Source: Gammaproteobacteria bacterium
Lineage (GTDB): Bacteria; Pseudomonadota; Gammaproteobacteria; CBDBNL01; JAAOII01
Assembly: GCA_965207945.1 (NCBI GenBank)
Contig: OZ242303.1
Coordinates: forward strand, 1,280,935 to 1,344,934
Direction of reading: 5' to 3'
DNA length: 64,000 bases
Of this stretch, positions 11,118 through 36,517 are shown one piece after another; positions within the stretch are counted from its first letter, which is position 1, and each line of letters begins with the position of its first letter. The translations under genes and the position numbers were made by a program. Below the pieces are notes generated by a model, which made no database searches, was not told the DNA's origin, and worked only from the letters and a program-made list of their open reading frames with translations.

Positions 11118-11179
11118 ACAACAATAGTTAAATACAATTCAAATATTTTGTTCGCTTAGTATGAAGGGGCGCAAATAAT

Positions 11180-13990: not shown

Positions 13991-14539
13991 ATAATCTAAT
14001 TAATTTTTTCATTAAAATTCATAGAGTCAAGAACTTCAGTAGATGGACTTTACCCAACCTATGACAAGTAGATAAGATCCGAGCCGACTCAACAATCATC
14101 TTCACAACATGCTTATCATTATGATAAACAGCGTAAACTTGAGGATCCCTATCTAAGAAAAATATATTCATTTTATACTTCACAATATAACATAATTACA
14201 AAGAGTTCTGACCAATAACCATACACAGCTCATATTTCCAGGACGAGGTATGTCCGCTCAGCATCCAGTTTGATGCTTGGAATAAAATATCAGCATACTT
14301 GTAATTAACTAGATTAAAATATAATGTATAATCATATCTATAATTGAATTAAAATATCACCAAATATTACATGAAAATATTTATAAAATTGGTAATAAAT
14401 ACAAACAATCAATCCTTTGGAATCAGTTATCCTGACCACAAAAGATTATTTATACCACTCTACCCCCAATATTTATCACCCATACAATTCAATATCCTAT
14501 CTCCAAATATTATCTACAAAATAACTACTTAATAAAATC

Positions 14540-15589: not shown

Positions 15590-15833
15590 CGCAAATATAA
15601 AATTATAGTTTAAGCAGAAAATACTTAGCCATTTGATTCTATAACAAATTAATAATACCATAAATAATATGTATAACTATGTGTGATCCATATTACGCAA
15701 GGTTGCCCTTCATAAATATTCATATAAAATATCTCCCCATAATTATTTTTACAATTACTTACAATAGGTCGCAAAAATTTAGCATACAGTTATTGATTTT
15801 AAGGTGACTATAATGGCACTAAATAATGCCCAT

Positions 15834-17621: not shown

Positions 17622-17799
17622 AATAGTATATTTATATATTTAGTTAAATTAAAATAGGTAAGCTTAAAAATTACCTAATGAGTACATTATAAACCTTTAT
17701 ATATTTTTATCTATTCATTTATATATTCTAACCAAGAATATATAATACTCTATAATAACAACGTATAGAATAATCGACTAATCGCAAAATATTAAATAA

Positions 17800-19424: not shown

Positions 19425-20624
19425 TCAATCCACAAACACACCATCAAAAAAATTAACAATATCAGCATTAATCTCAAGTAAAAATTCTCTTCTATCAAAT
19501 CCTTCTGGATCTCTGGCACCGGGGAAATCTATCTCTTTTAGCAACCATTCAGGAAATGGTGGTACAAAAGCATAGTGATGCACTCCTTCATATACCTTAT
19601 AGATATGTTCTCTTGTGCCAAGCGATTTATGCAGATGCTCGGCATGAAATGGAAACTTAAGCACATTATCATCTCCTAATCTATATATAGCTATATCTGC
19701 ATTGGAGTTTTGAATTTCCTCTGCTGTAAAAATAACTGCAGCTGGGGCTACCACCGCAATTGCTTTAAACGGCACGGGCGATTCAAGTGGTTCAAACTCT
19801 GGACTAAACTTTCTATCATCAGTTGGAGTTCTCTTTCCAATTCTCTTAACTATTCCCTGGATTGTTACACGGATAATCCCTTTAAACCAAGTCAATGTCT
19901 TTTTCCACCATGGTCCTGAACCACTACATGCTGGGTCTTTGGCTGCATTGTTGCTACAGTGCGTTATAAATTGTTGCATGCTGGGAGTTATCCCGCTTGT
20001 GGCAAGCACTGTCAGCCCTCCTAAAGAATAGCCGAGCGCCCCAATATTATCATCGTCCATTATCTGTTTTATAGTGGCATCTGACTCAGCAACCTCCAAC
20101 GTATGTGATAACTCATCTATCCTAATATTTATGACGGGGAATAGTTGCCTGCCTTTTTTCAACAACTGATCATTGCTATGTTGAGGCGCAATTACTACAT
20201 AGCCGGCTCTTGCAAGCTCCGCAGCTGTCCCGCGATGATTTCTGTAACGTCCCATTACCCCATGAGAAAGCAATATAACTGGATATTGCCCCGCCGCAGG
20301 TTCGCCCTCCCAAGCCCATTTAGGACGGAAAGGTCCCCACTCTTGCTCAAACTCCTCAGCAAAACTTGGATACCATACCCCCAACTCTAAGCCGCTTTCG
20401 CCTAATCCCCCTACTTCTTCTATAATCATAAACCCAGCATTATATTTTTCCTGCGCGGACGCAAGTTGCCCCGCTACGACCACAAGAAGTATAAAGCAAA
20501 GTTTAATTAAAAAAGATGAATAGATTGTGCGCAAGTTATAACTCGCCACTAAGGTTGTAATATACACACCGCAAATAGTGCGAGCTGATTGTATACCTGA
20601 CTGCATATAATTATTGATTAACAT
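19425..20624 (-). CDS. secreted/membrane-anchored alpha/beta-hydrolase (dienelactone hydrolase / PAF-acetylhydrolase-like)
   Basis: N-terminal hydrophobic signal-anchor, nucleophile elbow GYSLGG (GxSxG), and VILLSHG. GC is higher than in the neighbouring defence genes. Confidence 0.6.
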   Translation of the reverse strand: MLINNYMQSGIQSARTICGVYITTLVASYNLRTIYSSFLIKLCFILLVVVAGQLASAQEKYNAGFMIIEEVGGLGESGLELGVWYPSFAEEFEQEWGPFRPKWAWEGEPAAGQYPVILLSHGVMGRYRNHRGTAAELARAGYVVIAPQHSNDQLLKKGRQLFPVINIRIDELSHTLEVAESDATIKQIMDDDNIGALGYSLGGLTVLATSGITPSMQQFITHCSNNAAKDPACSGSGPWWKKTLTWFKGIIRVTIQGIVKRIGKRTPTDDRKFSPEFEPLESPVPFKAIAVVAPAAVIFTAEEIQNSNADIAIYRLGDDNVLKFPFHAEHLHKSLGTREHIYKVYEGVHHYAFVPPFPEWLLKEIDFPGARDPEGFDRREFLLEINADIVNFFDGVFVD

Positions 20625-20769: not shown

Positions 20770-22578
20770 CTACTGTTCAGATAATTTTGCTTCCAAGAAT
20801 TCAAATATTTTTCTAAATTTATCTTTAGTTATTTCATCAAATGTAAATTCATCTTTTGAAATATACAAATTTTCAATTGCAGTATTAAGCATTTTTTTAT
20901 GATTCCCGTTCAACTCATTATCACCATAATAGCTTTTAATTATTTTATCTCTTTCTGTTTCGGTAAATAAATTTTCTATTCTATATTTTTTCCAGTTACT
21001 ATCAATGGACTCAAAGGTGAAAATTTTATTTGCGATATCTGATGTAATATCATGAATATATTGCGCTCTTGCTTCTTGGCCTCCTTTATCTGAATCAAAT
21101 AGTGCAATAAATTTTTTATTCCATGCGATATACAAACGAAAAATTTGATCATACTTATTAGCTCCTCCACCAGGGTAAAAATTAATATCATATTTTTTTT
21201 CAAATATAACTTCAGAGAAGTACTTAAATACGTAATAATCATTTTTACCCTCTGTAAAAACAATAGATTTAACTAACTCAAGTTTGCTAGGGCAGTATTG
21301 AAGTGCATCAAGTATTGGCTTAAAATGAGTTTCATCATTTTTACCATTAGCAACAAAATTTTTATAGAGAGTTGCATCTATATCAGTTTCCGTCACATTA
21401 GACTCTCCAATATCAGAATAACTAATTGCTTTATTATTAACAATAAATGTTCCAGGTAACCATATAGGGTTTATTAGATGATGACTATGTGTTGAATATA
21501 TTAGTTTACAATTAGAAACAATTTTTCCTAAAGTTAGTAATAATTTCTGTTGAGAACTTTGATGTAAATTACTTGCTGGCTCATCCAGTAAAAATAAAGT
21601 CTCTCCTGGATCACTTGAACGAGATTTACGAAATACTGTAAATATTAAGAAACTAAAGAACCAGCTAAATCCTAAACTTCTTTCATCTATAAAATAACTA
21701 TCATCCCCCTGCTTAATTTTTAATGTAAGATAATAATTATTATCCTCTGCATGTTCATATTTTAATACCACCTCTTTCATACTAGTAGTACCAAAAATTT
21801 GCTCCCACTTTCGTAGTATTTCATTATTAAGCTTAGCTAATATTTTATTTAATAATGATTCTAGTGCATCTTTAGTACCCTCATCTGTTGCTTTCATTCT
21901 ATTTAATAAACTTTCCTCAATACTCAAATTATCTCCGATAGATTTTAAAATATCGGCAATAATTTGTCTATATTCTTGTTGCTCAGGACTTGCATTATCC
22001 AATTCCTCTAAATAAATTTTTCGTGGGAATCTAAAAAGAAAATCTTGATAATATAGAATTTTAGGTAAATATTTTTTGTTAATTAAATTAACAACATCTT
22101 TCCAGGCCTTGTGATCTTTATAATCATATAATTTTTTATTCTTTTTACCTTTGCTAGATTTACCCCAAATATTTAATCCATATATATTATTTATCCAATT
22201 ATTCTCACAAGGTTCTGAACTTTTAAATTTATATTCCCTACTAATAGTTATAAAACCCTTTATTTTCTCAATATTAAAATTATGATTGAATTTTAAATAT
22301 TTTTTAATTTCTTCTATCTCATATTCTGCAAATTCAAGTTCTGCTCGAATGCAAACAATATCATTGAATTCATGTTTTAAGCTTTTAGGAATTAATGTAT
22401 GAATATCTTCTTTATTAATACCATTTCTAAAAACATTAATTGCTTCTAATATTGAAGTTTTACCGCTTTCATTAAGTCCAACTAAAGTAAAAATATTTAG
22501 GTTAGATTTATTTTTTAAATCCAACTCAATTTTAGTAATACCTTTAAAATTAATTATTGTAAATTTTGTATATTTCAT
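20770..22578 (-). CDS. OLD-family nuclease: N-terminal ABC/AAA ATPase + C-terminal Toprim domain
   Basis: N-terminus KFTIINFKGITKIELDL..NIFTLVGLNESGKTSILEAI (OLD/AAA_15-type Walker A). C-terminus VFTEGKNDYYVF and FDSDKGG (Toprim E and DxD motifs). It lies 35 bp downstream of and co-directional with the res gene. Confidence 0.7.
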   Translation of the reverse strand: MKYTKFTIINFKGITKIELDLKNKSNLNIFTLVGLNESGKTSILEAINVFRNGINKEDIHTLIPKSLKHEFNDIVCIRAELEFAEYEIEEIKKYLKFNHNFNIEKIKGFITISREYKFKSSEPCENNWINNIYGLNIWGKSSKGKKNKKLYDYKDHKAWKDVVNLINKKYLPKILYYQDFLFRFPRKIYLEELDNASPEQQEYRQIIADILKSIGDNLSIEESLLNRMKATDEGTKDALESLLNKILAKLNNEILRKWEQIFGTTSMKEVVLKYEHAEDNNYYLTLKIKQGDDSYFIDERSLGFSWFFSFLIFTVFRKSRSSDPGETLFLLDEPASNLHQSSQQKLLLTLGKIVSNCKLIYSTHSHHLINPIWLPGTFIVNNKAISYSDIGESNVTETDIDATLYKNFVANGKNDETHFKPILDALQYCPSKLELVKSIVFTEGKNDYYVFKYFSEVIFEKKYDINFYPGGGANKYDQIFRLYIAWNKKFIALFDSDKGGQEARAQYIHDITSDIANKIFTFESIDSNWKKYRIENLFTETERDKIIKSYYGDNELNGNHKKMLNTAIENLYISKDEFTFDEITKDKFRKIFEFLEAKLSEQ

Positions 22579-22612: not shown

Positions 22613-25600
22613 TTAAATTAATAATTTGTTACCTAAGTTTTCTAAACTATCAAGCCAGTATTTCTGATATTTTTTTGTACTAGTAGCGGTAGATTGGGGA
22701 TGAAATAAAAGAAGCTTAACCTTTACTTTAAATTTGCTACGGCTTGCATCCTTATAATAGAATTCTTTACTGGCACCATTTTCCTCTTCAAATACATCAA
22801 TAAAACCATCAATCTTACGTTCACCTGATATGTATTCTGGCCCTTTAGGATCTATAAATAAAATTGTATACTCATCTCCCTTCTGCAACCAAAAAATAAA
22901 ATCTGGTTTAAATTTTGCCATAGTGTTTCCCTTGGGGTTATAGTAAGGGATATATATTTGGTCAAGGTGTTCATCAAGTTTTGAGAATTTCCACCAATCA
23001 TAAGAAGCAAAGATATTCTTTTCGTCTTTTAAATATTTAATTAATTTATTTATAAACTCAACTTCACTATCAACATTTATAGCATGAATGAAGTAGTCAA
23101 TTTTTTTCTCCTCCGGTACTATAAGAGGAATATAATAGTGGTTTTTTATATGGTGGATACCAATACTTTTATCGTCATACATAAAACCTTTTTTGTTATG
23201 AGAGCTCCTCGCTAGCAACTCATTATAAGCATCCCTATCACCACTTTTAAAAGTTGCATTCAATTCATCTTCCGAAGGTGTAACACAATCTCTTACTTGA
23301 ATAATTGATTCTTTGAGCCGCTCCACCCCACTGTCTCCTTTATATTGAATTCTCTTAAAATGAACTATCTCATTTTTTAGTTCATTAATTACATCAACAT
23401 CTTCGTTTTTAATTTTAAAGTAATTAAATATCCTACCAAATAGTAGATCTGAGTTATTAATACTCTTACCCTCATTAAAATTAAAACGTCCTAAACCCTG
23501 TTTATTATTAAGGGTGTTTTTTACTTCCTCAATAAATTTTGGTTCAACGTCATACTTCATTAATATTATTTTTTCACCTAAATATTTAAACAATTTATTG
23601 CTCATCTTAAAATCTTTTTCACTGATAATGAATTGTTGTTTATTAGTTCTCCCAGATACCGCCCCTTCTGTTTCCTTATATGTTGGAATTAATAATAGTT
23701 TCCCCTCTCTATTTTCTTTAAATAAATCTCCTATCGCATGCTCTCGTTTTTCTTTAGCAAGCACCTTCATTATTTCATTAATATTTTTTGGTTTAGTGCC
23801 AAAAACAAATAAAGTTTCCAATGGCGCAACATAATCTTTTATATCATTATATTTACGACGCATATCTTCATCTAATTCTCCACCACTACATAAAGAGTTA
23901 ATTCTTTTTCTTTTTCCTTTGACTGGTTCAATCCTCACTCCTCTACCAACTGATTGTAAAACAAATTTTTTAGCATCTGGTCCAACCCCTATATTAATAA
24001 ATAAAATAATATTAGGCCGATTAGAATCCCAACCCTCATAAAAAGCTCTGGAACCCATAAGTATGCTTATATCAGAATCATCTTCATTTAATTTTTCAAA
24101 AACACTTTTGTGCTCAATCTTTTCATTAATCTCATAATTCTTAGTTACGTTTTTTATCCATTTTGATATATCACCTATCTTAACAAGAGCAAAGGGTTTA
24201 TGAGATTTCTTAACCTGTAGAATTGCCTCTTTATTATTACCAGGAATTGTCAATATTTCAAAATTACCAGCAGCTTTTGAATTGAATATCTCATATAAAA
24301 CATCATCATATTTAATGTTTTGTAATGCTTTATTATTAAATTTAAAATCTCCTCCCTCGTATTTGTAACTAACACTATCAGAAAATTCAGTCAATAGTTC
24401 TTTCTTAACCTCCATGAATAGCCCAGTTCTTATTTTGTTGTTAGCTATCTTATGCAACTCAGCAAAAAATAATCCTAAGTCAGATGTTTTTGAGCTAACT
24501 GAATTAACCAAAGTCAATAGCAATGGCTTGTGGTATAAATCTTTATGTTTTCTTTTAATTTTCTTAGAATATTGGCTAATATATGTTGCTAAAACAAGTG
24601 TCTTTAATACCGTTTTTTGTTTCTCTTGCGGAGAAAAATCTGTCAGTTTACGAAAGCCAGCTACCTCTTCATCAAAAAGACATATATTCTTACCATAACC
24701 TTCTTCAATAAATTTAGATAAGTTAAAATTGAATGCACAGGTAACATAATCATGATCTTCGGTAAATGTTGCAGAAAAATTAAACAGAAAACCGTTTCTA
24801 GAAAGAATAGAATATAAAACCTGTCCTTTACTCTCTTCTTTTTTACCTTTATGCGCCTCATCTAATAGAATATACCATTCTCCATTATTATCATAATTTC
24901 TAAAATCAGTTTTATTTTTCTTTTGAGTATCAGTAATAAGGTCAGAACGATAATAAAAAATATTGATTTCATTTTTAGAAAAAGATATTTGATTATTTCT
25001 TTTAATATTATCATACTCTCTCAAATTCTTTAATACAATTTTACTGCTTGGATGATGGCTATTATATTCCTCTACATGATTTTTAAATTGTGTAAGTAAA
25101 TCCTCTCTATGGGATAAAAACAAAATATCTTTGCGCGGTATTTCACCACGATTCATTAAATCTCTAAGCATAGAGATAAGTTTAACAATAACTAATGTTT
25201 TACCTGAACCAGTTGCCATCCAAAAGTTCATTCTATTAATAAAATACTCAAAAGAAATTTTGCCATCCTCAACAGGAAACTCTTGGTCATAATCTAATAA
25301 ATGTTTAAATATTTCTTTGCGCTCAGGTTCTAATTCATAATCCAAGGATTCAAGTCGTGGAATATTTAATGCTTCGTAAAGTTCAAAAAAATATTTCTTT
25401 CTTATTTGTTGAAGTTCATTTTCATCTCTATAACTGGCTTCATCATCATTTTCATAAAATTTATAAAGTGCTTTAATAGCATTTTTTAAGGCATCTTGTT
25501 GGAAATCAAAAAGTTGTTTGCTTTGTGAAAAATTTTTTATATCATTAAACTGCCATTCAGCAGGAAGAGTATCGTTCTCTATATTGTTAACTATTTCCTC

Positions 25601-25618
25601 TAAATGTAATATATCCAT
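22613..25618 (-). CDS. res: type III restriction enzyme Res-like subunit (SF2 helicase + C-terminal PD-(D/E)xK nuclease)
   Basis: Helicase motif I WMATGSGKTLVIV, motif II ILLDEAHKG, motif VI-like QSVGRGVRI. C-terminal YILFIDPKG (D..D/ExK-like). It starts 1 nt after the mod stop. Confidence 0.7.
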   Translation of the reverse strand: MDILHLEEIVNNIENDTLPAEWQFNDIKNFSQSKQLFDFQQDALKNAIKALYKFYENDDEASYRDENELQQIRKKYFFELYEALNIPRLESLDYELEPERKEIFKHLLDYDQEFPVEDGKISFEYFINRMNFWMATGSGKTLVIVKLISMLRDLMNRGEIPRKDILFLSHREDLLTQFKNHVEEYNSHHPSSKIVLKNLREYDNIKRNNQISFSKNEINIFYYRSDLITDTQKKNKTDFRNYDNNGEWYILLDEAHKGKKEESKGQVLYSILSRNGFLFNFSATFTEDHDYVTCAFNFNLSKFIEEGYGKNICLFDEEVAGFRKLTDFSPQEKQKTVLKTLVLATYISQYSKKIKRKHKDLYHKPLLLTLVNSVSSKTSDLGLFFAELHKIANNKIRTGLFMEVKKELLTEFSDSVSYKYEGGDFKFNNKALQNIKYDDVLYEIFNSKAAGNFEILTIPGNNKEAILQVKKSHKPFALVKIGDISKWIKNVTKNYEINEKIEHKSVFEKLNEDDSDISILMGSRAFYEGWDSNRPNIILFINIGVGPDAKKFVLQSVGRGVRIEPVKGKRKRINSLCSGGELDEDMRRKYNDIKDYVAPLETLFVFGTKPKNINEIMKVLAKEKREHAIGDLFKENREGKLLLIPTYKETEGAVSGRTNKQQFIISEKDFKMSNKLFKYLGEKIILMKYDVEPKFIEEVKNTLNNKQGLGRFNFNEGKSINNSDLLFGRIFNYFKIKNEDVDVINELKNEIVHFKRIQYKGDSGVERLKESIIQVRDCVTPSEDELNATFKSGDRDAYNELLARSSHNKKGFMYDDKSIGIHHIKNHYYIPLIVPEEKKIDYFIHAINVDSEVEFINKLIKYLKDEKNIFASYDWWKFSKLDEHLDQIYIPYYNPKGNTMAKFKPDFIFWLQKGDEYTILFIDPKGPEYISGERKIDGFIDVFEEENGASKEFYYKDASRSKFKVKVKLLLFHPQSTATSTKKYQKYWLDSLENLGNKLLI

Positions 25619-25619
25619 A

Positions 25620-28010
25620 TCATTCCCACCAGATTAGTGGTTTAATTTCTTTGTAATCTATTTCTTGGGTATTTATTTTTGTACCATCTTCAAATTCAAC
25701 TTCATTAGCAGTAATTTTTCTAATATTTTTACCTTTCAGATTGGAAAGAGTTTCAGCAATATCAATATCCGGATATAAAGCACTTAGATCTACTTTAACT
25801 TTATTATTTTTATAGTCAATTGTTATCGCCTCTGTCATCTTCTCATCCTTCATAAAAACATATTCTTGATATGGACTTGCGCCAACTTGTAAATCTAAAA
25901 CATCACTATCCGCATATTTACATTTGCTTAATGTATCCTCATATTGTTCTAGTTCGTAGTATTTAAAAAATCCACCACCATTCCAATTAACTTCTTTAGA
26001 TATACCACAAGGTTCATTCCTTCCAATACCTGCCAATACTTGTTTCATTCTAAATAAAATATCTGATTCAAAATAGTTACCCATTTCTACCCCTACCCAT
26101 CTTCTTTGTAATTTATGAGCGGAAGCAATTGTAGTTCCTGATCCCATAAAAAAATCAAGGACTAAATCATTAGGTTTTGTAGTTAAAGAAATTATTCTCT
26201 TAAGTAATTGTTCAGGTTTTTGGGTAAGTTCTGATCCATGTGGAGTATATTCTTTAACATTTCTTTTAATCTTATTAGAATGTAGTTCCTCATATTCACT
26301 GGCATTCCATGTATCTTCAATATTATATGCGCCATCTTTGGTCTTAAGTCCTATTTTATAAACTTTACCTTTATCATCTTTTATAGTTACCTTAACGTTT
26401 GTAATTTTTTGTTTATCCACACCCCATTTATTATAAATGCTTTCTAATTCATTATTAATGGTATCCTTTCTAAATGAGCTATATTTAATTTTTGATTCTT
26501 TTTTCTTAAAGAAGTGTTCCGATCGACTATTTTTAGTGAAAATAAAAATAGTATCATGATTTCTGACAAAAGCATCAACTTGAGTTTTATATCCTGACAC
26601 CCACCCTATTCTCCAAATTATTTCATTGATAAAGTTTTTCTTAGAAAATATATTAGATAATAATATCCTTCCTAAATGTTGAGCGTTCCAATCTAAATGT
26701 AAAAAAATACTACCGCTCTGATTAATAAATTCTTTAGATAATCCTAGTCTATTATCCATAAGAGTTAGCCAAGTGCTATCCTGAAACCTATCAATATACT
26801 CAAAATCATTCCCAGTATTGAAGGGAGGGTCGATGTAAACAACTTGTACCTTTTGTTTAAACTTAGGCAATATAGTATTAAGTGCTTGATAATTTTCGCT
26901 CTTAATTAACCAACCATCTAGTTGATTATCTAAGTCATCGAATAAAGAAAGTATTTTAAATTTTAAATCTGGAAAATACTTAGTATCTATAGGTAGATGA
27001 GCATATTCACTATTATCTATATCTTTTGCGTTAAATTCTTCTTCAACTATACCCATTTCCTGCCATTCTTTTAATTGTTTATTAAAGTTAGGGTGCTTAA
27101 TTATTTTTTGGACTAGTTTCTTGTCAGTAATTCTATCCAGAGTGATTACATAGTTACTCTTACGGACAAACTTGGGTTTATTCCAAATCTTACCTAATTC
27201 GTTTTCAAATTGAGAAATAAAATCTATAATTTTATAAGTAATTATTTTTAATATCCTTAATTGCTCTATTCTTTCTGGAGTCCATTCATTATCCTCTTGC
27301 CAAAAGTACTGATAACTCCAAAGCTTAAATTGCTCCATAAGAAATTCCTTGGCATTCTTATTAATAAAATAATCAACTTTAGTTTGTTTTTCGAAAAGAT
27401 GAAATCCGCGTTCTAAATCTTCTGCTTTAACTTGTAATCCTGCTTCCTTAATTGATTTTAATATTGCATCTATGTCTGTCTTTTGTCCTTTTTTAGAATA
27501 GCTAACCTCTAAATTAACCAGTCTATCTTTTATATTCTTAAATATATATACAACCGAATTTTTTTCATTAGCTTTTTTGTGTCCCATATTACTGACATCA
27601 AAAAATAATTTATAACCACCTGATTCGTTAGGGTTAATTTCAATACTTCTAAAGATACTATCCGTCTTAACATAATAAAGCATATTAGTCTTCCAAAATA
27701 AAGATACATCTTGCTCCTCTGTATAAACTCTCTCGTATATATTATTATGGAAAGGGGTTGAATTAAAATAGATGGAACCATTCTCACTGAAATAGCGCTT
27801 GAAAAATGAATAAAGTTTATTAAAAATATCCTCTCTAAATTTAGGATTTTTACGTAACTGCACGTCAATATCTTTGTCAAGAATTTTCTTAATTTGAGAA
27901 TAATATCCATGCTTAATCTTCATCAAATTAACAAACCCTCCTTTGCCTTCAATCTTTGCACCAGCAAAAATATCTTCTAAAATTTGGTAAAACTTTTCTT
28001 CCTTGTTCAT
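25620..28010 (-). CDS. mod: DNA methyltransferase (beta-class N6A/N4C, type III Mod-like), paralog 1
   Basis: Motif IV YIDPPFNTGNDFEY precedes motif I LVLDFFMGSGTTIASAHKL (beta-class order). About 340-aa N-terminal and about 165-aa C-terminal extra domains are shared with paralog 2. Confidence 0.75.
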   Translation of the reverse strand: MNKEEKFYQILEDIFAGAKIEGKGGFVNLMKIKHGYYSQIKKILDKDIDVQLRKNPKFREDIFNKLYSFFKRYFSENGSIYFNSTPFHNNIYERVYTEEQDVSLFWKTNMLYYVKTDSIFRSIEINPNESGGYKLFFDVSNMGHKKANEKNSVVYIFKNIKDRLVNLEVSYSKKGQKTDIDAILKSIKEAGLQVKAEDLERGFHLFEKQTKVDYFINKNAKEFLMEQFKLWSYQYFWQEDNEWTPERIEQLRILKIITYKIIDFISQFENELGKIWNKPKFVRKSNYVITLDRITDKKLVQKIIKHPNFNKQLKEWQEMGIVEEEFNAKDIDNSEYAHLPIDTKYFPDLKFKILSLFDDLDNQLDGWLIKSENYQALNTILPKFKQKVQVVYIDPPFNTGNDFEYIDRFQDSTWLTLMDNRLGLSKEFINQSGSIFLHLDWNAQHLGRILLSNIFSKKNFINEIIWRIGWVSGYKTQVDAFVRNHDTIFIFTKNSRSEHFFKKKESKIKYSSFRKDTINNELESIYNKWGVDKQKITNVKVTIKDDKGKVYKIGLKTKDGAYNIEDTWNASEYEELHSNKIKRNVKEYTPHGSELTQKPEQLLKRIISLTTKPNDLVLDFFMGSGTTIASAHKLQRRWVGVEMGNYFESDILFRMKQVLAGIGRNEPCGISKEVNWNGGGFFKYYELEQYEDTLSKCKYADSDVLDLQVGASPYQEYVFMKDEKMTEAITIDYKNNKVKVDLSALYPDIDIAETLSNLKGKNIRKITANEVEFEDGTKINTQEIDYKEIKPLIWWE

Positions 28011-28122
28011 GTGTAAGATTTATAGATAATTAATGGTATTATCATACCATTAAATAAAACTTTCTTTCAGCAAAATTAACCTATAACACAATAGATATGA
28101 TATTACACAAAAATGTATCATA

Positions 28123-30411
28123 TCATTCCCACCAGATTAGTGGTTTAATTTCTTTGTAATCTATTTCTTGGGTATTTATTTTTGTACCATCTTCAAATTC
28201 AACTTCATTAGCAGTAATTTTTCTAATATTTTTACCTTTCAGATTGGAAAGAGTTTCAGCAATATCAATATCCGGATATAAAGCACTTAGATCTACTTTA
28301 ACTTTATTATTTTTATAGTCAATTGTTATCGCCTTTGTCATCTTCTCATCCTTCATAAAAACATATTCTTGATATGGGCTAGCACCAACCTGTAAATCTA
28401 AAACATCGCTATCTGCATACTTGCATTTGCTTAAGGTATCTTCATATTGCTCTAGTTCATAGTATTTAAAAAATCCGCCACCATTCCAATTAACTTCTTT
28501 AGATATACCACAAGGTTCATTCTTTCCAACGCCTGCCAATATCTGCTTCATTCTATTAAGAATTAGAGGATCAAAACTTACTCCCATCTCCACACCAACC
28601 CATTTTCTGTTAAGCTTGTGAGCGGCGGCTATAGTAGTCCCCGCCCCTAAGAAAAAGTCAGCAACTATATCATTCTCGTTGCTTGATGATTCTATAATTC
28701 TTCTAAGCAGGTTTTCAGGTTTTTGTGTCAAATAGCCAGTTCTTTCTTTGGATTGACTTGCAGTTCCTAAAGAAGGTATTTCTGTCCACCAATCATGCAA
28801 AGTCCTACCTTTATATTTATCCCAGTAAACTCTTTTTTCTTTATCCCATTGCCAATATCTATCTCCATTCTCATCAACTTTATTAAAAGATTTCTCATTT
28901 TCTTCTCTCCCTTTATATATAGGATTAAAAATATATTGTTCATCTTTACTATAGAATATAATATTATCGTGTTTTCTGCCCCACATTCCCTTTGCACCTG
29001 TTCCCGCATAACACCAAACTATGTCATTCCTAAAATTATCTTTTCCAAATACTTCATCCATTATAATTCTTCCGTAATAGTGAGCATTATGATCTAAATG
29101 TAGATAAAAATTTCCTGTTTCTTTCAATAGCTTATGAGCCAATGAAATGCGATCAAACATAATTGATAACCAAGTACTATCTCTAAATTTGTCAATATAT
29201 TCAAAATCATGTCCAGTATTAAAAGGTGGATCCATATAGATGGTTTGAATCTTTCCCGTAAACTTAGGTAATATAGAATTAAGCGCCTGATAATTTTCAC
29301 TCTTAATTAGCCATCCATCTAATTGATTATCTAAGTCATTAAATAAAGAAAGTATTTCAAACTTTAAATCTAAAAAATGCTTAGTATCTATTGGTAGGTG
29401 AGCGTATTTACTATTATCTATATATTCCTCATTAAATTTTCCATCAAATATACTAAGTTCTTTCCATTCTTTTAATTGCTTATTAAAATTAGGGTGATTA
29501 ACTATTTTTTTAACTAGTTTTTTATCTGTGATTTTATCCAGAGTTATTACATAGTTACTCTTGCGGACAAACTTGGGTTTATTCCAAATCTTACCTAATT
29601 CATTTTCAAATTGAGAAATAAAATCTATTATTTTATAAGTAATTATTTTCAGTAACCTTAGCTGCTCAATCCTATCTGGAGTCCATTCATTATCTTCTTG
29701 CCAAAAATACTGATAGCTCCAGAGCTTAAATTGCTCCATAAGAAATTCTTTGGCATTCTTATTAATAAAATAATCAACTTTAGTTTGTTTTTCAAAGAGA
29801 TTAAAGCCGTGTTCTAAATCATCTACTTTAGCTTGTAATCCTTCTTTTTTAATTGACTTAAGTATTCCGTTGGTGTCTGTTTTTTTACCATTTTTAGAAT
29901 AACTAACCTCTAAATTAACCAATCCATCTTTTATATTCTTAAATATATATATAACTGATTTCTTTTCATTGATTTTCTTGTGTTCCATATTACTGACATC
30001 AAAAAATAATTTCCAATTATCTGATTCGTTAGGATCAATTTCAATGCTTCTAAAGATACTATCTGTCTTAACATAATAAAGTATATTGGTTTTCCAAAAT
30101 AAAGAGACATCTTGTTCTTCCGTATAAACCTTCTCATATATATTATTATGAAAAGGAGTTGAATTAAAATAGATAGAACCATTCTCACTAAAGTAGCGAC
30201 TAAAAAACGAATAAAGCTTATTAAAAATTTCTTCTCTAAATTTAGGATGATTACATAACTGTACATCAATATCTTTTTCAAGAATTTTCTTAATTTGAGA
30301 ATAATATCCATGCTTAATCTTCATTAAATTAACAAACCCTCCTTTGCCTTCAATCTTTGCTCCAGCAAAAATATCTTCTAAAATTTGGTAAAACTTTTCT
30401 TCCTTGTTCAT
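28123..30411 (-). CDS. mod: DNA methyltransferase (beta-class N6A/N4C, type III Mod-like), paralog 2
   Basis: Motif IV YMDPPFNTGHDFEY and motif I IVADFFLGAGTTIAAAHKL. The N-terminal about 390 aa are about 85-90% identical to paralog 1 and the C-terminal about 150 aa about 99% identical. The central catalytic/TRD core is divergent. Confidence 0.75.
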   Translation of the reverse strand: MNKEEKFYQILEDIFAGAKIEGKGGFVNLMKIKHGYYSQIKKILEKDIDVQLCNHPKFREEIFNKLYSFFSRYFSENGSIYFNSTPFHNNIYEKVYTEEQDVSLFWKTNILYYVKTDSIFRSIEIDPNESDNWKLFFDVSNMEHKKINEKKSVIYIFKNIKDGLVNLEVSYSKNGKKTDTNGILKSIKKEGLQAKVDDLEHGFNLFEKQTKVDYFINKNAKEFLMEQFKLWSYQYFWQEDNEWTPDRIEQLRLLKIITYKIIDFISQFENELGKIWNKPKFVRKSNYVITLDKITDKKLVKKIVNHPNFNKQLKEWKELSIFDGKFNEEYIDNSKYAHLPIDTKHFLDLKFEILSLFNDLDNQLDGWLIKSENYQALNSILPKFTGKIQTIYMDPPFNTGHDFEYIDKFRDSTWLSIMFDRISLAHKLLKETGNFYLHLDHNAHYYGRIIMDEVFGKDNFRNDIVWCYAGTGAKGMWGRKHDNIIFYSKDEQYIFNPIYKGREENEKSFNKVDENGDRYWQWDKEKRVYWDKYKGRTLHDWWTEIPSLGTASQSKERTGYLTQKPENLLRRIIESSSNENDIVADFFLGAGTTIAAAHKLNRKWVGVEMGVSFDPLILNRMKQILAGVGKNEPCGISKEVNWNGGGFFKYYELEQYEDTLSKCKYADSDVLDLQVGASPYQEYVFMKDEKMTKAITIDYKNNKVKVDLSALYPDIDIAETLSNLKGKNIRKITANEVEFEDGTKINTQEIDYKEIKPLIWWE

Positions 30412-30601
30412 GTGTAAGATTTATAGATAAATAATTGTATTATCATACCATTAAATCAAGCTTTCTTTCAGCAAAGTTAGCCTATAACACAATAGATGTG
30501 GTATTAAACAAGAATGATTAGAAAATAGAAACATTAGAATAGATGCATGAAAAGGCCGTGAATACTTACAAATTTACCATAGCTGTGGTATACTCAGAAA
30601 T

Positions 30602-31240
30602 ATGCCAAATGATTGTAAAAAAACTATTGATGATCTTAATCAAATTATTAAGACTGATCCAAATAATGCATATGCTTACGATGATCGCGGCCATACTAAA
30701 TTTAAATTACAAGATTATCAAGGAGCCATTGATGATCTTAATCAAGCCATTAATATTGAACCAAATAATGCAAAATTTTACAGTAATCGTGGCGTCATTA
30801 AACTTACAATTAAAGATTATAAAGGAGCTATCAATGATTTTACTGAATCTATTAAAATTGATCCAAATGAAACCCGTTATTACAATAATCGTGGCAACGC
30901 TAAACTTGAAATTAAAGATTACAAAGGGGCTATCAAAGATTATCAAATAGCACTTAAAATTAACCCAAATAATGCAAATGCTTACAATGATCGCGGTATC
31001 GCCAAACGTGAATTAAAAGACTATAACGGGGCTATCAATGATTTTACTCAGGCTATTGAAATTGAACCGAATGATGCGAATGCTTACAATAATCGTGGTA
31101 ATATTAAATATAAATTAAAAGACTATAACGGGGCTATCAATGATTATCAAATAGCATTAAATTTAAGTGATAATAAATATTTAACTGGAAGAATAACTAA
31201 ATCCCTTAAGCAAGTTCAGAAAACATTAAAAGATTCGTAG
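30602..31240 (+). CDS. orphan TPR-repeat protein (6 TPRs; same subfamily as the FRG-TPR genes; possibly an N-terminally truncated remnant)
   Basis: Starts inside a TPR helix (MPNDCKKTIDDLNQIIKTDPNNAYAYDDRG). The repeats (AYNNRGNIKYKLKDYNGAINDY) match those at 35.6-36.3 kb, 37.4-37.9 kb and 9.3-11.0 kb. Confidence 0.55.
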   Translation: MPNDCKKTIDDLNQIIKTDPNNAYAYDDRGHTKFKLQDYQGAIDDLNQAINIEPNNAKFYSNRGVIKLTIKDYKGAINDFTESIKIDPNETRYYNNRGNAKLEIKDYKGAIKDYQIALKINPNNANAYNDRGIAKRELKDYNGAINDFTQAIEIEPNDANAYNNRGNIKYKLKDYNGAINDYQIALNLSDNKYLTGRITKSLKQVQKTLKDS

Positions 31241-31384: not shown

Positions 31385-32815
31385 TCATGCCACTAATTCT
31401 TCTATTTGCAAAACACGAGATTTTAAGGTATCTATAAAAACATCACACTGTTCTTTCATAAGCTGATTAAAATTTCCAGATTCATTATCTTTTGGCACTT
31501 TTAGAAACATCACATGAAAATGAATATCACTACCATGTTGTCTAATAACATCAGAAATTAATTCCAAAGATTGCTCCACATTAAAGTGCGCGTCCCATTC
31601 GTCTTCAGGCATTGGGTAGATAAACCCACATCCGCCTATTGGTCGTTCATTAGCATATTGACCTATATAGGTATGTAATTGGAAAAGGTCTTCTCGCTTT
31701 ACGCCTTTATTGGTATTGAAATTTTTATACTTAACATCAAATACATAAAGTCCCCCATTACTTTCAAACACAATATCTGGTATTAACTTACGAACCCCTT
31801 TATTAGAGTATCCTGCCGTTGGTATTGGATGTTCTTTTCCGGATACTTCTCGTAATATTATGCTATTTCTTATCAGAAGTTTTCTAATAAAATATTCAAA
31901 TAGCATTGACACATCAAATAAGAAAGCGCTATCATCTTTTATAGAACCAAAATTAATTCCATGTTGAGTTATGATCCTCTTTGACAGATCTATCAAAATA
32001 TTATAGTCGTTGTAAAAAGGATTAGTAAAATGTGGGGTTTCCATAATTTCCTTATAACTTCTTTTTATTCCTTGATTTGCTATTACAAAAGAATTGTAGA
32101 TGCCTCTTGTCTGCTCACAAAAAGAATAGCTCTTGATTAACTCATAAGCTTTAATAAAAAGGGAAGTTGCCGGACTACTGTAACTATGTTCTCGGTATGA
32201 GCAAAGATATTTACCTGATGTTTTATTGAGAAAGTAATCAACTGGGTCAATGCTGCCCCTAACCTTTGACGTCATTTCGGTCTTAGTTACATAAGTTTTG
32301 GGTATACCCAGACGGTATGCTCGCATAAATTTAATATTCCATAGGTATGCCAATAGCCAGTCATGCCCTTTCTTATTTCCCGCCCCACCAATATTTTCTA
32401 CTTCACGGAAGCCATCTGTATCTGCAATTATGTACTGTAAGAATGAATCACCGAAACGGGAACTAATATTCAATCCATAATCGCCCTTCTTTACAAAACC
32501 AACAACATTGCCAGTCTTTAGTGTGAAGTTATCTTTATTGCTACCAGTTATGTTAATAAACTCATCATTAGTATTATGCTTATACTCTTCAGAATTGAAT
32601 AGAAAATCAGTATGTCCGTTAGTATCATTAAATGCACGCTGCATATCGGATGATATAGATTGGAGGAATAGAAATGCTGGTTCATCTATTTGTCCGTTAC
32701 TTTCTAAATTTGCATGGTAAGAGTTTCTGTTCCATTTATTGACCAGCATTCCTTCCTCGGATTGATAACTTTGGTTATCACGAAGAGTTATACTTTTATG
32801 ATTTTGATTTTCCAA
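31385..32815 (-). CDS. mcrC: McrC-like type IV restriction nuclease subunit
   Basis: Immediately downstream of mcrB. C-terminal PD-(D/E)xK: LIPDIVFESNGGLYVFDVKYK. Confidence 0.7.
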   Translation of the reverse strand: MENQNHKSITLRDNQSYQSEEGMLVNKWNRNSYHANLESNGQIDEPAFLFLQSISSDMQRAFNDTNGHTDFLFNSEEYKHNTNDEFINITGSNKDNFTLKTGNVVGFVKKGDYGLNISSRFGDSFLQYIIADTDGFREVENIGGAGNKKGHDWLLAYLWNIKFMRAYRLGIPKTYVTKTEMTSKVRGSIDPVDYFLNKTSGKYLCSYREHSYSSPATSLFIKAYELIKSYSFCEQTRGIYNSFVIANQGIKRSYKEIMETPHFTNPFYNDYNILIDLSKRIITQHGINFGSIKDDSAFLFDVSMLFEYFIRKLLIRNSIILREVSGKEHPIPTAGYSNKGVRKLIPDIVFESNGGLYVFDVKYKNFNTNKGVKREDLFQLHTYIGQYANERPIGGCGFIYPMPEDEWDAHFNVEQSLELISDVIRQHGSDIHFHVMFLKVPKDNESGNFNQLMKEQCDVFIDTLKSRVLQIEELVA

Positions 32816-32820
32816 AGCGT

Positions 32821-34554
32821 CTATTTATTACTTTCCATTCCAAACACTTTCCTAAATTGTTGGATGAGTTCATTCTCTTTACCACCTGTACCACGAAGAT
32901 ACTCATGTAATAAAGGATAGATGCAATCTACCCATATTTTATTTCTAACCTCATCAAGAGTTAAATTATTTGGATACTTCATATTCATCAGATATGCATG
33001 TCCTATTTGATAGTCAGAACCAAGCAGCTCCGTATTTGTAATTTCTTTATTAAGAAACTCAAGATTTTCTGCTAATCCAACCCAATCTTGTTTTTTCTTT
33101 GCCAGATCCTGCTTTAGAATATCAATATTAGGCACAACTTCTTCCCAATGGAATCTTCTGCGCAGAGCGAAATCAAAACTTTCAATACTGCGGTCAATAG
33201 TATTCATAGTACCAATTAGACGAATATTAAATGGAATAAAGAATTGGTATCCCAACTCATTGTTAAACATACCTGTTTCTTTATCATTAAGGGTTGAATA
33301 TTGGGTTTTGATAACACCCTTTACACCCCGATATTCCAGACAATACATTAACTCTCCAAGAACTCGTGAAAGTTCTGCCCTATTAATTTCATCTATTATG
33401 AAGTAAAAAGGAGGGATGGCATCTATAAGTAATATAGAAGAATCTCCTATATCAAAAATATATTTCCAATGATTTTCTTTTTCTGTTAACCTACTTTTGC
33501 TATTCTCAATGTCTTTGATTGTAAGTGAACTGAAATTTTGGTTTTCACATATTTTGTGATTATAAATGTCAAGTTCCCATTTACTAGCTTTTATACAGAA
33601 ATCCTTGAATACCCCGTTTTGTAACCTAAGTTGAGTCGCTTCATTTTTATCTGGCACAGGCCGCAAACCTTCCATAAAATCTTCATAACTAAACGAAGGA
33701 TGAAACTGAACAAATTCATGCTGCTCTGCATACATATAGTAACTTGTTGGCGCAAATTTCTTTTTCCATTCATTAAAGTGTGATTCGGCCTGTTTCTTAG
33801 CTTCGTATGTCTTACCAGTTCCAGGAGGACCATATTTAATCACTTGATTTTTAATGGCGAATATATCTTTCATATTTTCATTTTGGGTTGTCGTATCGTT
33901 ATAAGGAGCTACTATATTTTTTTCAGGGTTTTCTATATGTTCATTTAAGCGCCAAACAAACATACTTAAATAAAATTCATCTGTCTTTTCATTTTCTAAT
34001 TCATTCTGAAGTTTTTCTCTAATTTCTTTCATTAGAAATTGATTTCTTGCGAACCATTCTCGGGATCTGTTATTACGACCTGTATTATAAGGATATTCAG
34101 ATATCATTTTTTCCTTCATTAACCATTTAAATACTGCATCAAATTTTTTAACACTAACTGTAGTAGATACCCCAAGGGTACTTGCTGCAGCTATCCTATT
34201 AATCAATAAATGATTCTGTTTACCTTTCCAATTTTTATAAAGTTCATGATAAGTATTCTCTGTTGGATTTTTGATAAGAGACTCAAGGGCAGACATAAAA
34301 TTATCATCCTTAATAAATGAGTTAAATCTCTTAGGTAGTAAACCCGATTGTTTGCAACTAGCAATTCCGTTATCTCTAGTTTTAATTAATTTATCTAAAA
34401 AATCTTTATCCTGCTTCCATGATTCATCTTTATTAATAGTGTAATGAACATGATTAAAAAAATTTTTGTAATTGTTGTACCAAATATTAAATCCTTTGTT
34501 ATCCTTGTCAACAAGACTTTCATAATAATGTTTTAATTTGTTTTCCATAATCAT
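32821..34554 (-). CDS. mcrB: McrB-like AAA+ GTPase with an unusual approx. 215-aa N-terminal (putative DNA-reader) domain
   Basis: Walker A VIKYGPPGTGKTY and the McrB hallmark FYFIIDEINRAELSRVLGELMYCLEYRG. The N-terminal domain is homologous to the ORF at 38073-38822. Confidence 0.8.
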   Translation of the reverse strand: MIMENKLKHYYESLVDKDNKGFNIWYNNYKNFFNHVHYTINKDESWKQDKDFLDKLIKTRDNGIASCKQSGLLPKRFNSFIKDDNFMSALESLIKNPTENTYHELYKNWKGKQNHLLINRIAAASTLGVSTTVSVKKFDAVFKWLMKEKMISEYPYNTGRNNRSREWFARNQFLMKEIREKLQNELENEKTDEFYLSMFVWRLNEHIENPEKNIVAPYNDTTTQNENMKDIFAIKNQVIKYGPPGTGKTYEAKKQAESHFNEWKKKFAPTSYYMYAEQHEFVQFHPSFSYEDFMEGLRPVPDKNEATQLRLQNGVFKDFCIKASKWELDIYNHKICENQNFSSLTIKDIENSKSRLTEKENHWKYIFDIGDSSILLIDAIPPFYFIIDEINRAELSRVLGELMYCLEYRGVKGVIKTQYSTLNDKETGMFNNELGYQFFIPFNIRLIGTMNTIDRSIESFDFALRRRFHWEEVVPNIDILKQDLAKKKQDWVGLAENLEFLNKEITNTELLGSDYQIGHAYLMNMKYPNNLTLDEVRNKIWVDCIYPLLHEYLRGTGGKENELIQQFRKVFGMESNK

Positions 34555-34706: not shown

Positions 34707-34766
34707 ATGAATTATTCTACCAAAATATATAAAAAGGTTCTGCCAGCAACCACCCTACTTCCTTGA
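34707..34766 (+). CDS. 19-codon upstream leader ORF (MNYSTKIYKKVLPATTLLP) whose TGA overlaps the TTG start of FRG-TPR 1
   Basis: ATG 34707, stop TGA 34764-34766, main ORF TTG at 34763 (TTGA overlap). The paralogous copy is at 36458-36517. Confidence 0.35.
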   Translation: MNYSTKIYKKVLPATTLLP

Positions 34767-36418
34767 GTTATATTCAAGATACTGGAAGTAATGCACCAGT
34801 AGTTAATTCCGTTTCAGAGTTTCTTGCATGCATTAATGATATTATAAAATATAACAATGACCAGGGAAGTAAATTTTTGTTTAGAGGTCAAGAGAACGAA
34901 GAGTGGGAGATGGAAACATCTGCTTATAGGCGTCTAAAAAGAGAATCCAACGATAATCAAGTATCAGAAGGAGAGGAATTGTATTACAATCTTGGATTAA
35001 TACAACAATTTAGACATGCAGATTTCCATAGCAAGTACTCATCAGAAATAATGCAGCAGGACTTAGGTATTTTAGCTCAACTACAACATATGGGAGCTGC
35101 AACCTCATTAATTGATTTCACTGATAACGCAACAACTGCTTTATGGTTTGCTTGTAAAAAAAGTATAAACTCAGATAGTAATCATAATAATGGCAAGGTA
35201 TTTATTTTATTTGCAGGTGGCGAACATAATTTTGAAGAGATTGATAGTTTAGAACAAATAAAAAATTCTAGAGTAAGATTTCCTAAACAATTAGAATTTG
35301 CTAAAGAAAATAATATATTAAACAATGAAAAGTTAAACTATTGGAAACCAGCGCATCTTAATAATCGCATTACTGCTCAGCAATCTTATTTTTTAATAGG
35401 CAAAAGAGAACCACCAAAAATGCAAGAAATAGTTATAGCAGGAGCTTCAAAAATTGATATGTTAGAAGAGCTATCATTAGTACATGGAATTGAGCGAACG
35501 ACATTATTTCCAGATTTAGTTGGTTTTGCGCAGGCAAATTCTGTAGATTCAGCTTACGGCAAAGAAGAAAAACTGTTAAGAAAGAGAAATATTATTCGCC
35601 ATCACGATGAAATTATTGAACAAAGCCCTGAAGATCTCGGAGCTTATAGTAATCGAAGCATTGCTAAGTACAATTTGGGGGATTACGAAGGGGCTATTGA
35701 TGATTTTACCCAAGCTATTAATATTGACCCAAAGAATGCAAATGCTTACAATAATCGTGGTTACATTAAATATCAAATAGAACGTTACAAAGATGCTACT
35801 GATGATTTCAATGAAGCTATTAAGATTGACCCAAGCACTGCATTATTTTATAATAATCGCGGTAATCTTAAATGCACGTTAAAAAAATATCAACTTGCTG
35901 TTAATGATTACAATGAAGCTATTAAAATTGAATCAAATAATGCATTATTTTATAACGGTCGCGGACATGCTAAGCGTGGATTAAAAGATTATAAAGAAGC
36001 TATTAATGATTTTACTAAAGCTATTAATATTGACCCGAATGATGTAAATTCTTACAACGAACTCGGAAACACTAAACTTAAATTAAAAGATTATAAAGAA
36101 GCTATTAATGATTTTACTAAAGCTATTGAAATTGATCCAAAGAATGCAAATCTTTACTATAATCGTGGTATGACTGAATATGAATCCAAAGATTATAAAG
36201 AAGCTATTAATGATTTTACTAAAGCTATTGAAATTGATCCAAAGAATGCAAATGCTTACCATAGCTCTGGTAAAGCTAAACTTGAGTTAAATGATTATAA
36301 AGAAGCTATTAATGATTATGAAACAGCACTGAAGCATAGTATAGACAAAGATTTAACTGAGGATATAACTCTAGACCTTGAGGATGCCCAGGACACTTTT
36401 AGAGAACGTACAAGGTAA
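34763..36418 (+). CDS. FRG-domain protein fused to C-terminal TPR repeats (paralog 1)
   Basis: KFLFRGQENEEW and LGILAQLQHMGAATSLIDFTDNATTALWFA match FRG-domain (PF08867) consensus motifs (FRGQ; QHyGlPTrLLDWT). The C-terminus has about 8 TPRs. There is no in-frame ATG before the FRG motif, so it starts at TTG 34763. Confidence 0.7.
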   Translation: MSYIQDTGSNAPVVNSVSEFLACINDIIKYNNDQGSKFLFRGQENEEWEMETSAYRRLKRESNDNQVSEGEELYYNLGLIQQFRHADFHSKYSSEIMQQDLGILAQLQHMGAATSLIDFTDNATTALWFACKKSINSDSNHNNGKVFILFAGGEHNFEEIDSLEQIKNSRVRFPKQLEFAKENNILNNEKLNYWKPAHLNNRITAQQSYFLIGKREPPKMQEIVIAGASKIDMLEELSLVHGIERTTLFPDLVGFAQANSVDSAYGKEEKLLRKRNIIRHHDEIIEQSPEDLGAYSNRSIAKYNLGDYEGAIDDFTQAINIDPKNANAYNNRGYIKYQIERYKDATDDFNEAIKIDPSTALFYNNRGNLKCTLKKYQLAVNDYNEAIKIESNNALFYNGRGHAKRGLKDYKEAINDFTKAINIDPNDVNSYNELGNTKLKLKDYKEAINDFTKAIEIDPKNANLYYNRGMTEYESKDYKEAINDFTKAIEIDPKNANAYHSSGKAKLELNDYKEAINDYETALKHSIDKDLTEDITLDLEDAQDTFRERTR

Positions 36419-36445
36419 CTCTTCTAAAAACAATAAATAGTAAGA

Positions 36446-36451
36446 TATAAT
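36446..36451 (+). promoter_or_regulatory. putative -10 hexamer (TATAAT) upstream of the second leader ORF
   Basis: Same conserved gatataat context and spacing as copy 1. Confidence 0.3.
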
Positions 36452-36457
36452 AATAAA

Positions 36458-36517
36458 ATGAATTCTTCTACTAAAACATATAAAAAGGTTCTTCCTCCAA
36501 CCACTCTACTTCTTTGA
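36458..36517 (+). CDS. 19-codon upstream leader ORF (MNSSTKTYKKVLPPTTLLL) whose TGA overlaps the TTG start of FRG-TPR 2
   Basis: ATG 36458, TGA 36515-36517, main TTG 36514. It is 15/19 aa identical to copy 1. Confidence 0.35.
   Translation: MNSSTKTYKKVLPPTTLLL

Follow-up and report, generated by a model that had tools for sequence, protein, structure and literature searches.

How does a single Type III restriction subunit come to stand behind two Mod methyltransferases that are alike at both ends and different in the middle? The question is raised by a locus in a 64,000-nt stretch of gammaproteobacterial contig OZ242303.1, the whole of which is hereafter called the window, whose minus strand carries an upstream mod gene (modU), a downstream mod gene (modD), one res gene and an OLD/AriA-like AAA_15-TOPRIM gene, in that order. 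We consider it probable that this is a Type III operon in which the mod unit was duplicated in tandem before the single res and the core of one copy was exchanged, and in which both Mods are made and each uses the one Res, giving the cell two specificities.

Two complete mod genes beside one res gene

The tandem pair of mod genes with similar ends and different cores is a real feature of the window. As in multi-mod loci, the two genes, both intact, lie co-oriented beside a res that is the only one in the window region. A 112-nt spacer separates modU from modD, and modD lies directly upstream of res in the Type III manner, joined to it by a TGAtATG junction in which one base stands between the stop codon and the ATG. 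Each Mod matches Pfam N6_N4_Mtase (E about 1e-40) and shows the beta-class order of Type III Mods, namely motif IV (DPPF), target-recognition domain (TRD) and motif I (FxGxG); a Type III subgroup that makes m4C is described (PMC8259958), but judged from the DPPF motif, the methylation product is probably N6-methyladenine (m6A). We assign res as the Type III restriction subunit from its Pfam ResIII match, its PADLOC REase_III match and the position of its ATG one base past the modD stop codon. Residues 128–288 of Res match Pfam ResIII, DEAD and SWI2_SNF2; the Pfam scan gave no match for residues 607–1001 and a C-terminal nuclease motif was not identified, while Res had no detectable sequence match in the Protein Data Bank (PDB).

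Table 1 Features of the mod-mod-res locus and of the surrounding low-GC island, in window coordinates.
Feature	Position	Strand	Remarks
modU leader	30412–30517	−	last ~85 nt conserved in relatives; CTGAAA-18-TATGAT preceded by TG, 30471 to 30442
modU	28123–30411	−	upstream Mod paralogue, 762 aa, intact; DPPF at aa 394–397; FLGAG (FxGxG-type) near aa 587–591
5′ repeat block, modU copy	29281–30517	−	alternately closest to the L082 allele and the L081 allele along its length
Divergent core of modU	28523–29280	−	758 nt; 34 codons shorter than the modD core
3′ repeat block, modU copy	28119–28522	−	encodes the near-identical C-terminal domain
Intergenic spacer (duplicated leader of modD)	28011–28122	−	CTGAAA-18-TATGAT preceded by TG, 28070 to 28041
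Palindrome 10+4+10, TTAATGGTATgataATACCATTAA	28030–28053	.	overlaps the TG-extended −10-like element of the modD leader
modD	25620–28010	−	downstream Mod paralogue, 796 aa, intact
5′ repeat block, modD copy	26880–28116	−	88% identical to 29281–30517; longest exact run 69 nt
Divergent core of modD	26020–26879	−	860 nt; non-motif methyltransferase parts and TRD
3′ repeat block, modD copy	25616–26019	−	matches 28119–28522, 14 mismatches in 405 nt
res	22613–25618	−	single Type III restriction subunit, 1001 aa; SF2 helicase (ResIII) in N-terminal half
OLD/AriA-like AAA_15-TOPRIM gene	20770–22578	−	3′ of res
KAP NTPase	11180–13990		low-GC island
GmrSD	15834–17621		low-GC island
PifA-like open reading frame	17800–19302		low-GC island
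McrC and McrB-like AAA_5 gene	31385–34554		low-GC island
Two FRG-TPR proteins	34763–37986		low-GC island

Conserved flanks and divergent cores

A sequence-only reading of the window, made without database searches, had described the pair as a mosaic tandem duplication with near-identical 3′ ends and with 5′ parts of ~1.1 kb plus leaders that are 85–90% alike, and quantitative alignment bears out this description, the flanks being clearly more similar than the cores. The proteins are 73% identical overall (580/798). At an offset of 2401, the 5′ blocks differ at 150 of 1245 nt (88% identity), spanning ~105 nt of leader and about 1.13 kb of coding sequence, and the 3′ blocks align at an offset of 2503 with 96.5% identity over 405 nt, so that the C-terminal ~138 residues differ at two positions (98.5% identical). 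Within the 3′ blocks lies a perfect 216-nt tract (25616–25831 = 28119–28334) that runs through the stop codon and 4 nt beyond it. Because this tract passes the stop codon and takes in the res ATG, the repeat unit, about 2.4–2.5 kb of leader, coding sequence, stop codon and res ATG, comprises the mod transcription unit in full and 4 nt more. Between the flanks, the cores are only 30–60% identical in nucleotides and differ in length by 102 nt; at the protein level, the N-terminal regions are 82–93% identical and the parts of the methyltransferase domain and TRD 17–49%. The pair accordingly shows the conserved 5′ and 3′ regions with a differing central TRD that define multi-mod loci. The earlier claim that the catalytic core diverges strongly stands for the sequence between and around the motifs, including the TRD, but not for the motifs themselves, since DPPF and FxGxG are kept in both copies and the divergence falls in the rest of the methyltransferase domain and in the TRD between them.

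Synonymous divergence (dS) between modU and modD is about 0.47–0.62 in the N-terminal part, exceeds 1 in the core and is zero over the last 72 codons, which correspond to the perfect 216-nt tract. These values show that the contrast between flanks and core is not due to selection alone, and as dS is zero across the perfect tract, the 3′ identity is recombinational, by recent conversion or by the original duplication, and not merely selective. The ratio of nonsynonymous to synonymous divergence (dN/dS) in the N-terminal part, about 0.07–0.15, is consistent with purifying selection on both mod lineages. The 5′ parts of modU and modD are as distant from each other as from alleles of other genomes.

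A duplicated leader precedes each mod copy

The two leaders carry the same promoter-like element, a CTGAAA and a TATGAT hexamer with a TG extension (Table 1). The modD leader begins with a remnant of the res ATG (28119–28121), and the ~85 nt before the ATG are nearly invariant in all four copies compared, those of modU, modD and the two closest relatives, L081 and L082. No terminator-like site was found in the spacer between modU and modD (28011–28122).

The inverted repeat that had been noted in both leaders is perfect in the modD leader, as GGTATgataATACC, where it extends to the 10+4+10 form TTAATGGTATgataATACCATTAA, but it is imperfect (...ATACA) in the leaders of modU, L081 and L082, three of the four compared. 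Matches to its pattern with one mismatch number 7 in the window against 2.0 expected. Relative to shuffled sequences, the folding of the modD leader gave a z of −3.1 and that of the modU leader a z of −1.2, no better than the shuffles. Given that the palindrome is perfect only in modD, overlaps the TG-extended −10-like hexamer and follows a pattern in excess across the window, we do not regard it as a special element of the leaders; in the modD leader it may act as an operator.

The Mods belong to a large subfamily with long terminal domains

The large N- and C-terminal domains had been taken as not typical of Type III Mods, a view that the homologues overturn. More than 5000 homologues of these long Mods were found, in many phyla of both Bacteria and Archaea; most of the 120 listed are 741–849 aa long, with near-full query coverage. 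PADLOC has an MTase_III model, PDLC03638 (816 positions), that aligns with modD over its whole length (E 5e-229) and with modU in two stretches with a gap at the core (E 7e-225), thereby covering the domains in question. Members of the subfamily have a conserved N-terminal region of ~370 aa and a C-terminal domain of ~140 aa around the methyltransferase core, with a ~1000-aa Res encoded next to them, and both window Mods have this build. The invariant columns of the family fall mostly in the N- and C-terminal parts, and short cores, in proteins of 741–770 aa, are common among its members. By sequence, then, the terminal domains are the mark of a large Type III Mod subfamily that PADLOC has already catalogued. 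Neither of them, at ~370 aa (N-terminal) and ~140 aa (C-terminal), gave a Pfam match, and no solved structure corresponding to the N-terminal region was found.

The most conserved stretch of the family, with many invariant residues, is GSIYFNSTPFHNNIYEKVYT..DV.LFWKT.MLYYVKTD, at residues 76–120 of modD (window ~27651–27785) and likewise in modU. AlphaFold confidence for this segment is very low in both models (pLDDT 25–46), and the segment may need a partner, the second Mod or Res, in order to fold.

Relatives reveal mosaic alleles and recurrent tandem mods

The family was surveyed at 162 loci from public collections, 87 of which include at least 2.5 kb upstream of mod. Nearly all loci examined have a single mod followed by res, and the same mod-res order is found wherever both genes are present, with passenger genes between them in some. 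The closest alleles are those of L081 and L082, contigs of one ENA sample, whose Mod termini are 76–93% identical in protein to those of the window. Each has one mod and then res in a neighbourhood similar to that of the window: the Res genes are syntenic (997–1001 aa), an AAA_15 gene follows res in L081, and a DLH hydrolase gene 95.7% identical to the window copy lies further downstream in L082. As their valyl-tRNA synthetases (ValRS) are only 83–85% identical to that of the window, L081 and L082 represent related taxa and not the same strain.

Compared with these alleles, the 5′ block of modU is a mosaic, with stretches 93–98% identical to the L082 allele alternating with stretches 91–98% identical to the L081 allele. 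Family members with termini no more than 50–70% identical have TRDs that match that of modD at 56–73% identity. For the TRD of modU, identity is 70% to that of the short methyltransferase P0121 (270 aa) and 60% to that of another, P0122 (366 aa). Shuffling of cores and TRDs through recombination in conserved flanks, as these sequence relationships depict it, is a familiar picture (PMC3077401, PMC3467074).

We also considered whether the whole modU core had been grafted from a Type II methyltransferase. An exhaustive comparison of the entire core placed P0121 and P0122 closest, at 57–59%; because long family members reach 50–52% and short cores are common in the family, the idea is weakened to a TRD type that some short methyltransferases share.

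Tandem mods recur in the family. L097 has the order mod-mod-res, with the first ~800 nt of the two mods 100% identical, cores 22–32% identical in protein and a leaderless TGAtATG junction between the mods, and L126 has two mods that share about 980 nt at 99–100% identity up to the contig end. In L157, the interval between a complete mod and res (6747–8075) holds a ~300-aa open reading frame (ORF) and then a fragment (7683–7997) that corresponds to the last ~115 aa of Mod, which has the look of a scar left when an insertion or deletion duplicated the 3′ end of mod. L056, on the gammaproteobacterial chromosome OZ242372.1, has two complete family systems in tandem, mod-res-mod-res (7009–17984); its second res was found as two tblastn segments and may contain a frameshift. 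Across the family, then, mods in tandem that have different cores and one homogenised end arise repeatedly, with differing junctions. In addition, a second genome (a 2.09-Mb contig) encodes two family Mods, P0002, which is 97% identical to modD, and P0037, which has a third core type.

A model for two Mods that share one Res

The structure of EcoP15I offers a guide to how two such Mods could share a Res. In that enzyme, the N-terminal domains of the Mods intertwine as the Mod2 dimer interface, the C-terminal domain of one Mod contacts Res extensively, and the TRD of one protomer reads the site while the other protomer methylates (PMC4490356). Given that, by analogy with EcoP15I, the conserved N-terminal region and the near-identical C-terminal domain of ModU and ModD would be the parts required for sharing one Res, that both genes are intact behind the same promoter-like leader and that no terminator-like site lies between them, we infer two Mod2Res1 enzymes. 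The sequence-only reading had itself proposed two methyltransferases with common docking domains for one Res, and by analogy with the EcoP15I domain roles this proposal fits the anatomy of the locus.

In this model, the mod transcription unit, comprising the promoter-like leader, coding sequence and stop codon, would have been duplicated in tandem upstream of res, and exchange with other alleles would have left one copy with a different methyltransferase and TRD core. The arrangement probably originated in one of two ways, tandem duplication with later replacement of patches by sequence from other alleles, or the integration of an allele from outside, after which the 3′ end would have been kept or made identical. 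The conserved flanks would then have two sources, a family-wide functional constraint and a history of recombination in which the unit was duplicated, alleles were replaced in patches and the last ~216–400 nt were recently homogenised. modU would be expressed from its own leader, and modD from the duplicated leader, co-transcribed and translationally coupled with res. Each Mod would dimerise through its conserved N-terminal region and recruit Res through the near-identical C-terminal domain, so that a cell would contain two Mod2Res1 enzymes, each with its own short asymmetric site for methylation and restriction.

If both Mods do use the single Res, one nuclease would have two restriction specificities, and the locus would capture a stage of specificity change in Type III systems, with mod duplicated and its core replaced via conserved flanks. 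modU and modD also form a natural chimera pair for asking which Mod domains dock Res.

A bolder and rather doubtful extension of this model treats the conserved terminal domains of the long-Mod subfamily as a universal scaffold that provides both dimerisation and the docking of Res and that can accept unrelated beta-class methyltransferase and TRD cores in exchange, among them cores of the small stand-alone methyltransferase type. Tandem arrays would then be intermediates in which a new specificity is tried while the old one is kept, and mixed ModU/ModD dimers and the loss or conversion of a copy would be further states. Were this so, Type III specificity would have a general, naturally modular route to reprogramming.

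Alternatives to two shared enzymes

One observation from a known system weighs against two shared enzymes: a motif could be assigned to only one of the two tandem Mods of Mycoplasma agalactiae (PMC9465063), so that a silent or Res-independent mod copy is possible. Applied to the window, this would mean that only modD, coupled to res, is a working Type III Mod, and that modU is a solitary, Res-independent methyltransferase with an epigenetic or protective role, or a redundant recent passenger. The separation of modU from res, its own promoter-like leader and the closeness of its TRD to P0121 and P0122 agree with this. Against it, modU retains the complete terminal domains of the family under purifying selection, its near-identity to modD in the C-terminal domain is hard to explain if ModU never meets Res, and the short core is no oddity in this family. 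On balance, we regard a modU that works apart from Res as unlikely.

The sequence-only reading had also proposed a cassette-style switch of specificity, by which recombination between the direct repeats would let a population toggle between modU-only, modD-only, hybrid and two-copy states. The perfect 3′ tract and the exact 5′ runs are long enough for RecA-type recombination, single-copy states exist in L081 and L082, L157 looks like the remnant of such an event, and the identical terminal tracts of L097, L126 and the window locus indicate ongoing homogenisation within loci. RecA-dependent deletion could have two outcomes, in that a 5′-5′ crossover keeps the modD core and a 3′-3′ crossover the modU core. 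However, the repeats are direct, and recombination between them allows only deletion, by which a core is lost irreversibly, or gene conversion, which makes any change irreversible or unprogrammed. Inverted repeats like those of an hsdS shufflon are lacking, since only direct repeats link the copies and the inverted pairs found are 31–40 nt long at 70–75% complementarity, which is chance level, and no recombinase or integrase domain was identified in the neighbouring ORFs scanned; with neither meaningful inverted repeats nor a recombinase among those ORFs, the locus is not a shufflon-type switch. Phase variation through simple-sequence repeats (SSRs) was likewise set aside, as a scan of both mods (TRF and regular expressions) found nothing beyond (AT)5 and homopolymers of 7, with no unit repeated enough in either gene, so that the locus is not a phasevarion. 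The single-copy relatives, moreover, are different genomes by their ValRS divergence and not variants within one population. We therefore abandon the cassette switch as a programmed mechanism and judge toggling through the direct repeats to be quite unlikely.

Still less likely, in our judgement, are ModU/ModD heterodimers, in which one protomer would recognise DNA and the other methylate, as ModA and ModB do in EcoP15I, with properties that neither homodimer has. The similarity of the N-terminal regions, the dimer interface by analogy with EcoP15I, and the probable co-expression of modU and modD from identical leader elements would permit them. This reading is purely inferential, the EcoP15I interface also takes in the methyltransferase domain and TRD (PMC4490356), which are the dissimilar parts of the window Mods, and the available part of a study of Mycoplasma bovis reports a Mod1 homodimer and does not contain the word 'heterodimer' (bioRxiv 10.64898/2026.05.01.722158).

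An assembly artefact, in which two strain alleles of one mod were set in tandem by the assembler, is scarcely credible: the source is apparently uncultured and may be a metagenome assembly, and several alleles of the locus coexist in one ENA sample, but the junction is built like a true duplication (stop codon, res-ATG remnant, second complete leader), both Mods lie on one 1.86-Mb contig, the second genome also encodes two family Mods (P0002 and P0037), and independent tandem loci occur in other assemblies (L097 and L126).

Comparison with known multi-mod and TRD-exchange systems

A multi-mod, single-res layout with conserved ends and variable cores has already been published for Mycoplasma, and the window locus is no new kind of system. 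In the Mbo45ORF167P locus of M. bovis PG45, three mods, 69–71% identical, stand with a single res, and Mod1 with Res forms the Mod2Res1 enzyme Mbo45V, according to a report (bioRxiv 10.64898/2026.05.01.722158) which also cites a similar cluster in M. pulmonis. In M. agalactiae 5632, two tandem mods (MAGa1570/1580, ~65% identical) accompany res (PMC9465063). Atack et al. (2018) described the M. bovis mods as alleles whose 5′ and 3′ ends are conserved and whose TRD varies, and proposed duplication followed by TRD acquisition (PMC5909438). As in the window, the mods of these Mycoplasma loci are paralogues about 65–70% identical, co-oriented directly upstream of one res, with the res-proximal mod abutting or overlapping res, and in both M. 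bovis and M. agalactiae the conserved ends and variable central TRD are read as duplication with different TRDs. By contrast, the Mycoplasma mods are of ordinary length (65.6 kDa for M. bovis Mod1) and GA/AG simple-sequence tracts switch each of them on and off, whereas the window Mods belong to the long subfamily (~750–830 aa), have no SSR, are each preceded by a separate leader and lie in a low-GC defence island of a host that is probably an uncultured gammaproteobacterium. Through the window locus, the multi-mod arrangement known from Mycoplasma loci under SSR control reaches a long-Mod subfamily that is SSR-free and environmentally widespread, in Bacteria and Archaea.

The prototype Type III Mod2Res1 enzymes EcoP15I and EcoP1I resemble the window system in having a beta-class Mod whose TRD lies between motifs IV (DPPY/F) and I (FxGxG), a mod immediately upstream of res and an SF2 helicase in the N-terminal half of Res. 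Type III systems are characterised by a Mod2Res1 complex whose ATP-dependent cleavage requires a pair of unmethylated sites in inverse orientation. EcoP15I differs in its single mod, and only about 320 of the 796 residues of modD align with its Mod.

Conserved termini, interchangeable cores and mosaics formed by flank recombination are also known from the modA and modB allele families of Haemophilus and Neisseria and from the 'domain movement' between mod alleles of Helicobacter pylori (Furuta et al., PMC3077401, PMC3467074), and there too the same TRD occurs in otherwise divergent backbones. Exchange in those systems is mostly between the alleles of different strains at one locus or between loci, whereas the window has both cores in tandem in one operon. 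The hsdS shufflons of Type I systems similarly comprise duplicated specificity modules, with conserved and variable segments, that serve one restriction subunit. Unlike the window locus, where both copies are complete, the repeats direct and the scanned neighbourhood free of a recombinase, they have inverted repeats, usually a dedicated recombinase, and are reversible.

The defence island and its borders

The locus lies in a low-GC island of about 30 kb (window 8500–38000; 23–34% GC in 2-kb windows) that is packed with defence genes (Table 1) and set in a backbone of 40–50% GC. At one border, a 1730-aa ORF on the plus strand (5925–11117) combines a complete valyl-tRNA synthetase (residues 1 to ~940) with about 750 aa of TPR repeats; its GC content falls from ~50% to ~30% near 8.7 kb, and the closest ValRS homologues are 970–1014 aa long. 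The ORF is either a real fusion at the island border or the result of a lost stop codon.

TPR genes with 102-nt (34-aa) tandem units flank the restriction-modification (R-M) locus at 30602–31240 on the plus strand, 9300–11000 and 35650–37900, and their units are 67–84% identical in DNA to those of other TPR arrays, both in the window and in L081 and L082. With so many dispersed TPR repeats, rearrangements of the island could be driven by them.

The DLH-type hydrolase gene on the minus strand (19425–20624) is 95–96% identical to its copies in L081 (18702–18985) and L082 (19366–20657), against 83–85% for ValRS (protein) and ~85% for the R-M genes (DNA), a sequence contrast which suggests that the DLH segment was recently exchanged between related taxa.

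Between about a quarter and a third of the family loci that were checked have one or more co-directional passenger genes between mod and res (L017, L034, L040, L050, L075; L054, L063, L077; L024, L030, L047; L028, L064; L013; L076). With one representative per size class confirmed by Pfam and the other loci grouped by ORF length only, the passenger classes are Bro-N (~280 aa), HTH with Peptidase_M78/ImmA-like (~380 aa), PHP with AAA (~900 aa), DUF6119 (~500 aa), AlbA_2/Schlafen with HATPase_c_4, and AAA_13 (RloC-like). L035 has a candidate GmrSD-like passenger ORF, judged by eye only. The junction between mod and res has the appearance of a hotspot at which accessory defence genes insert.

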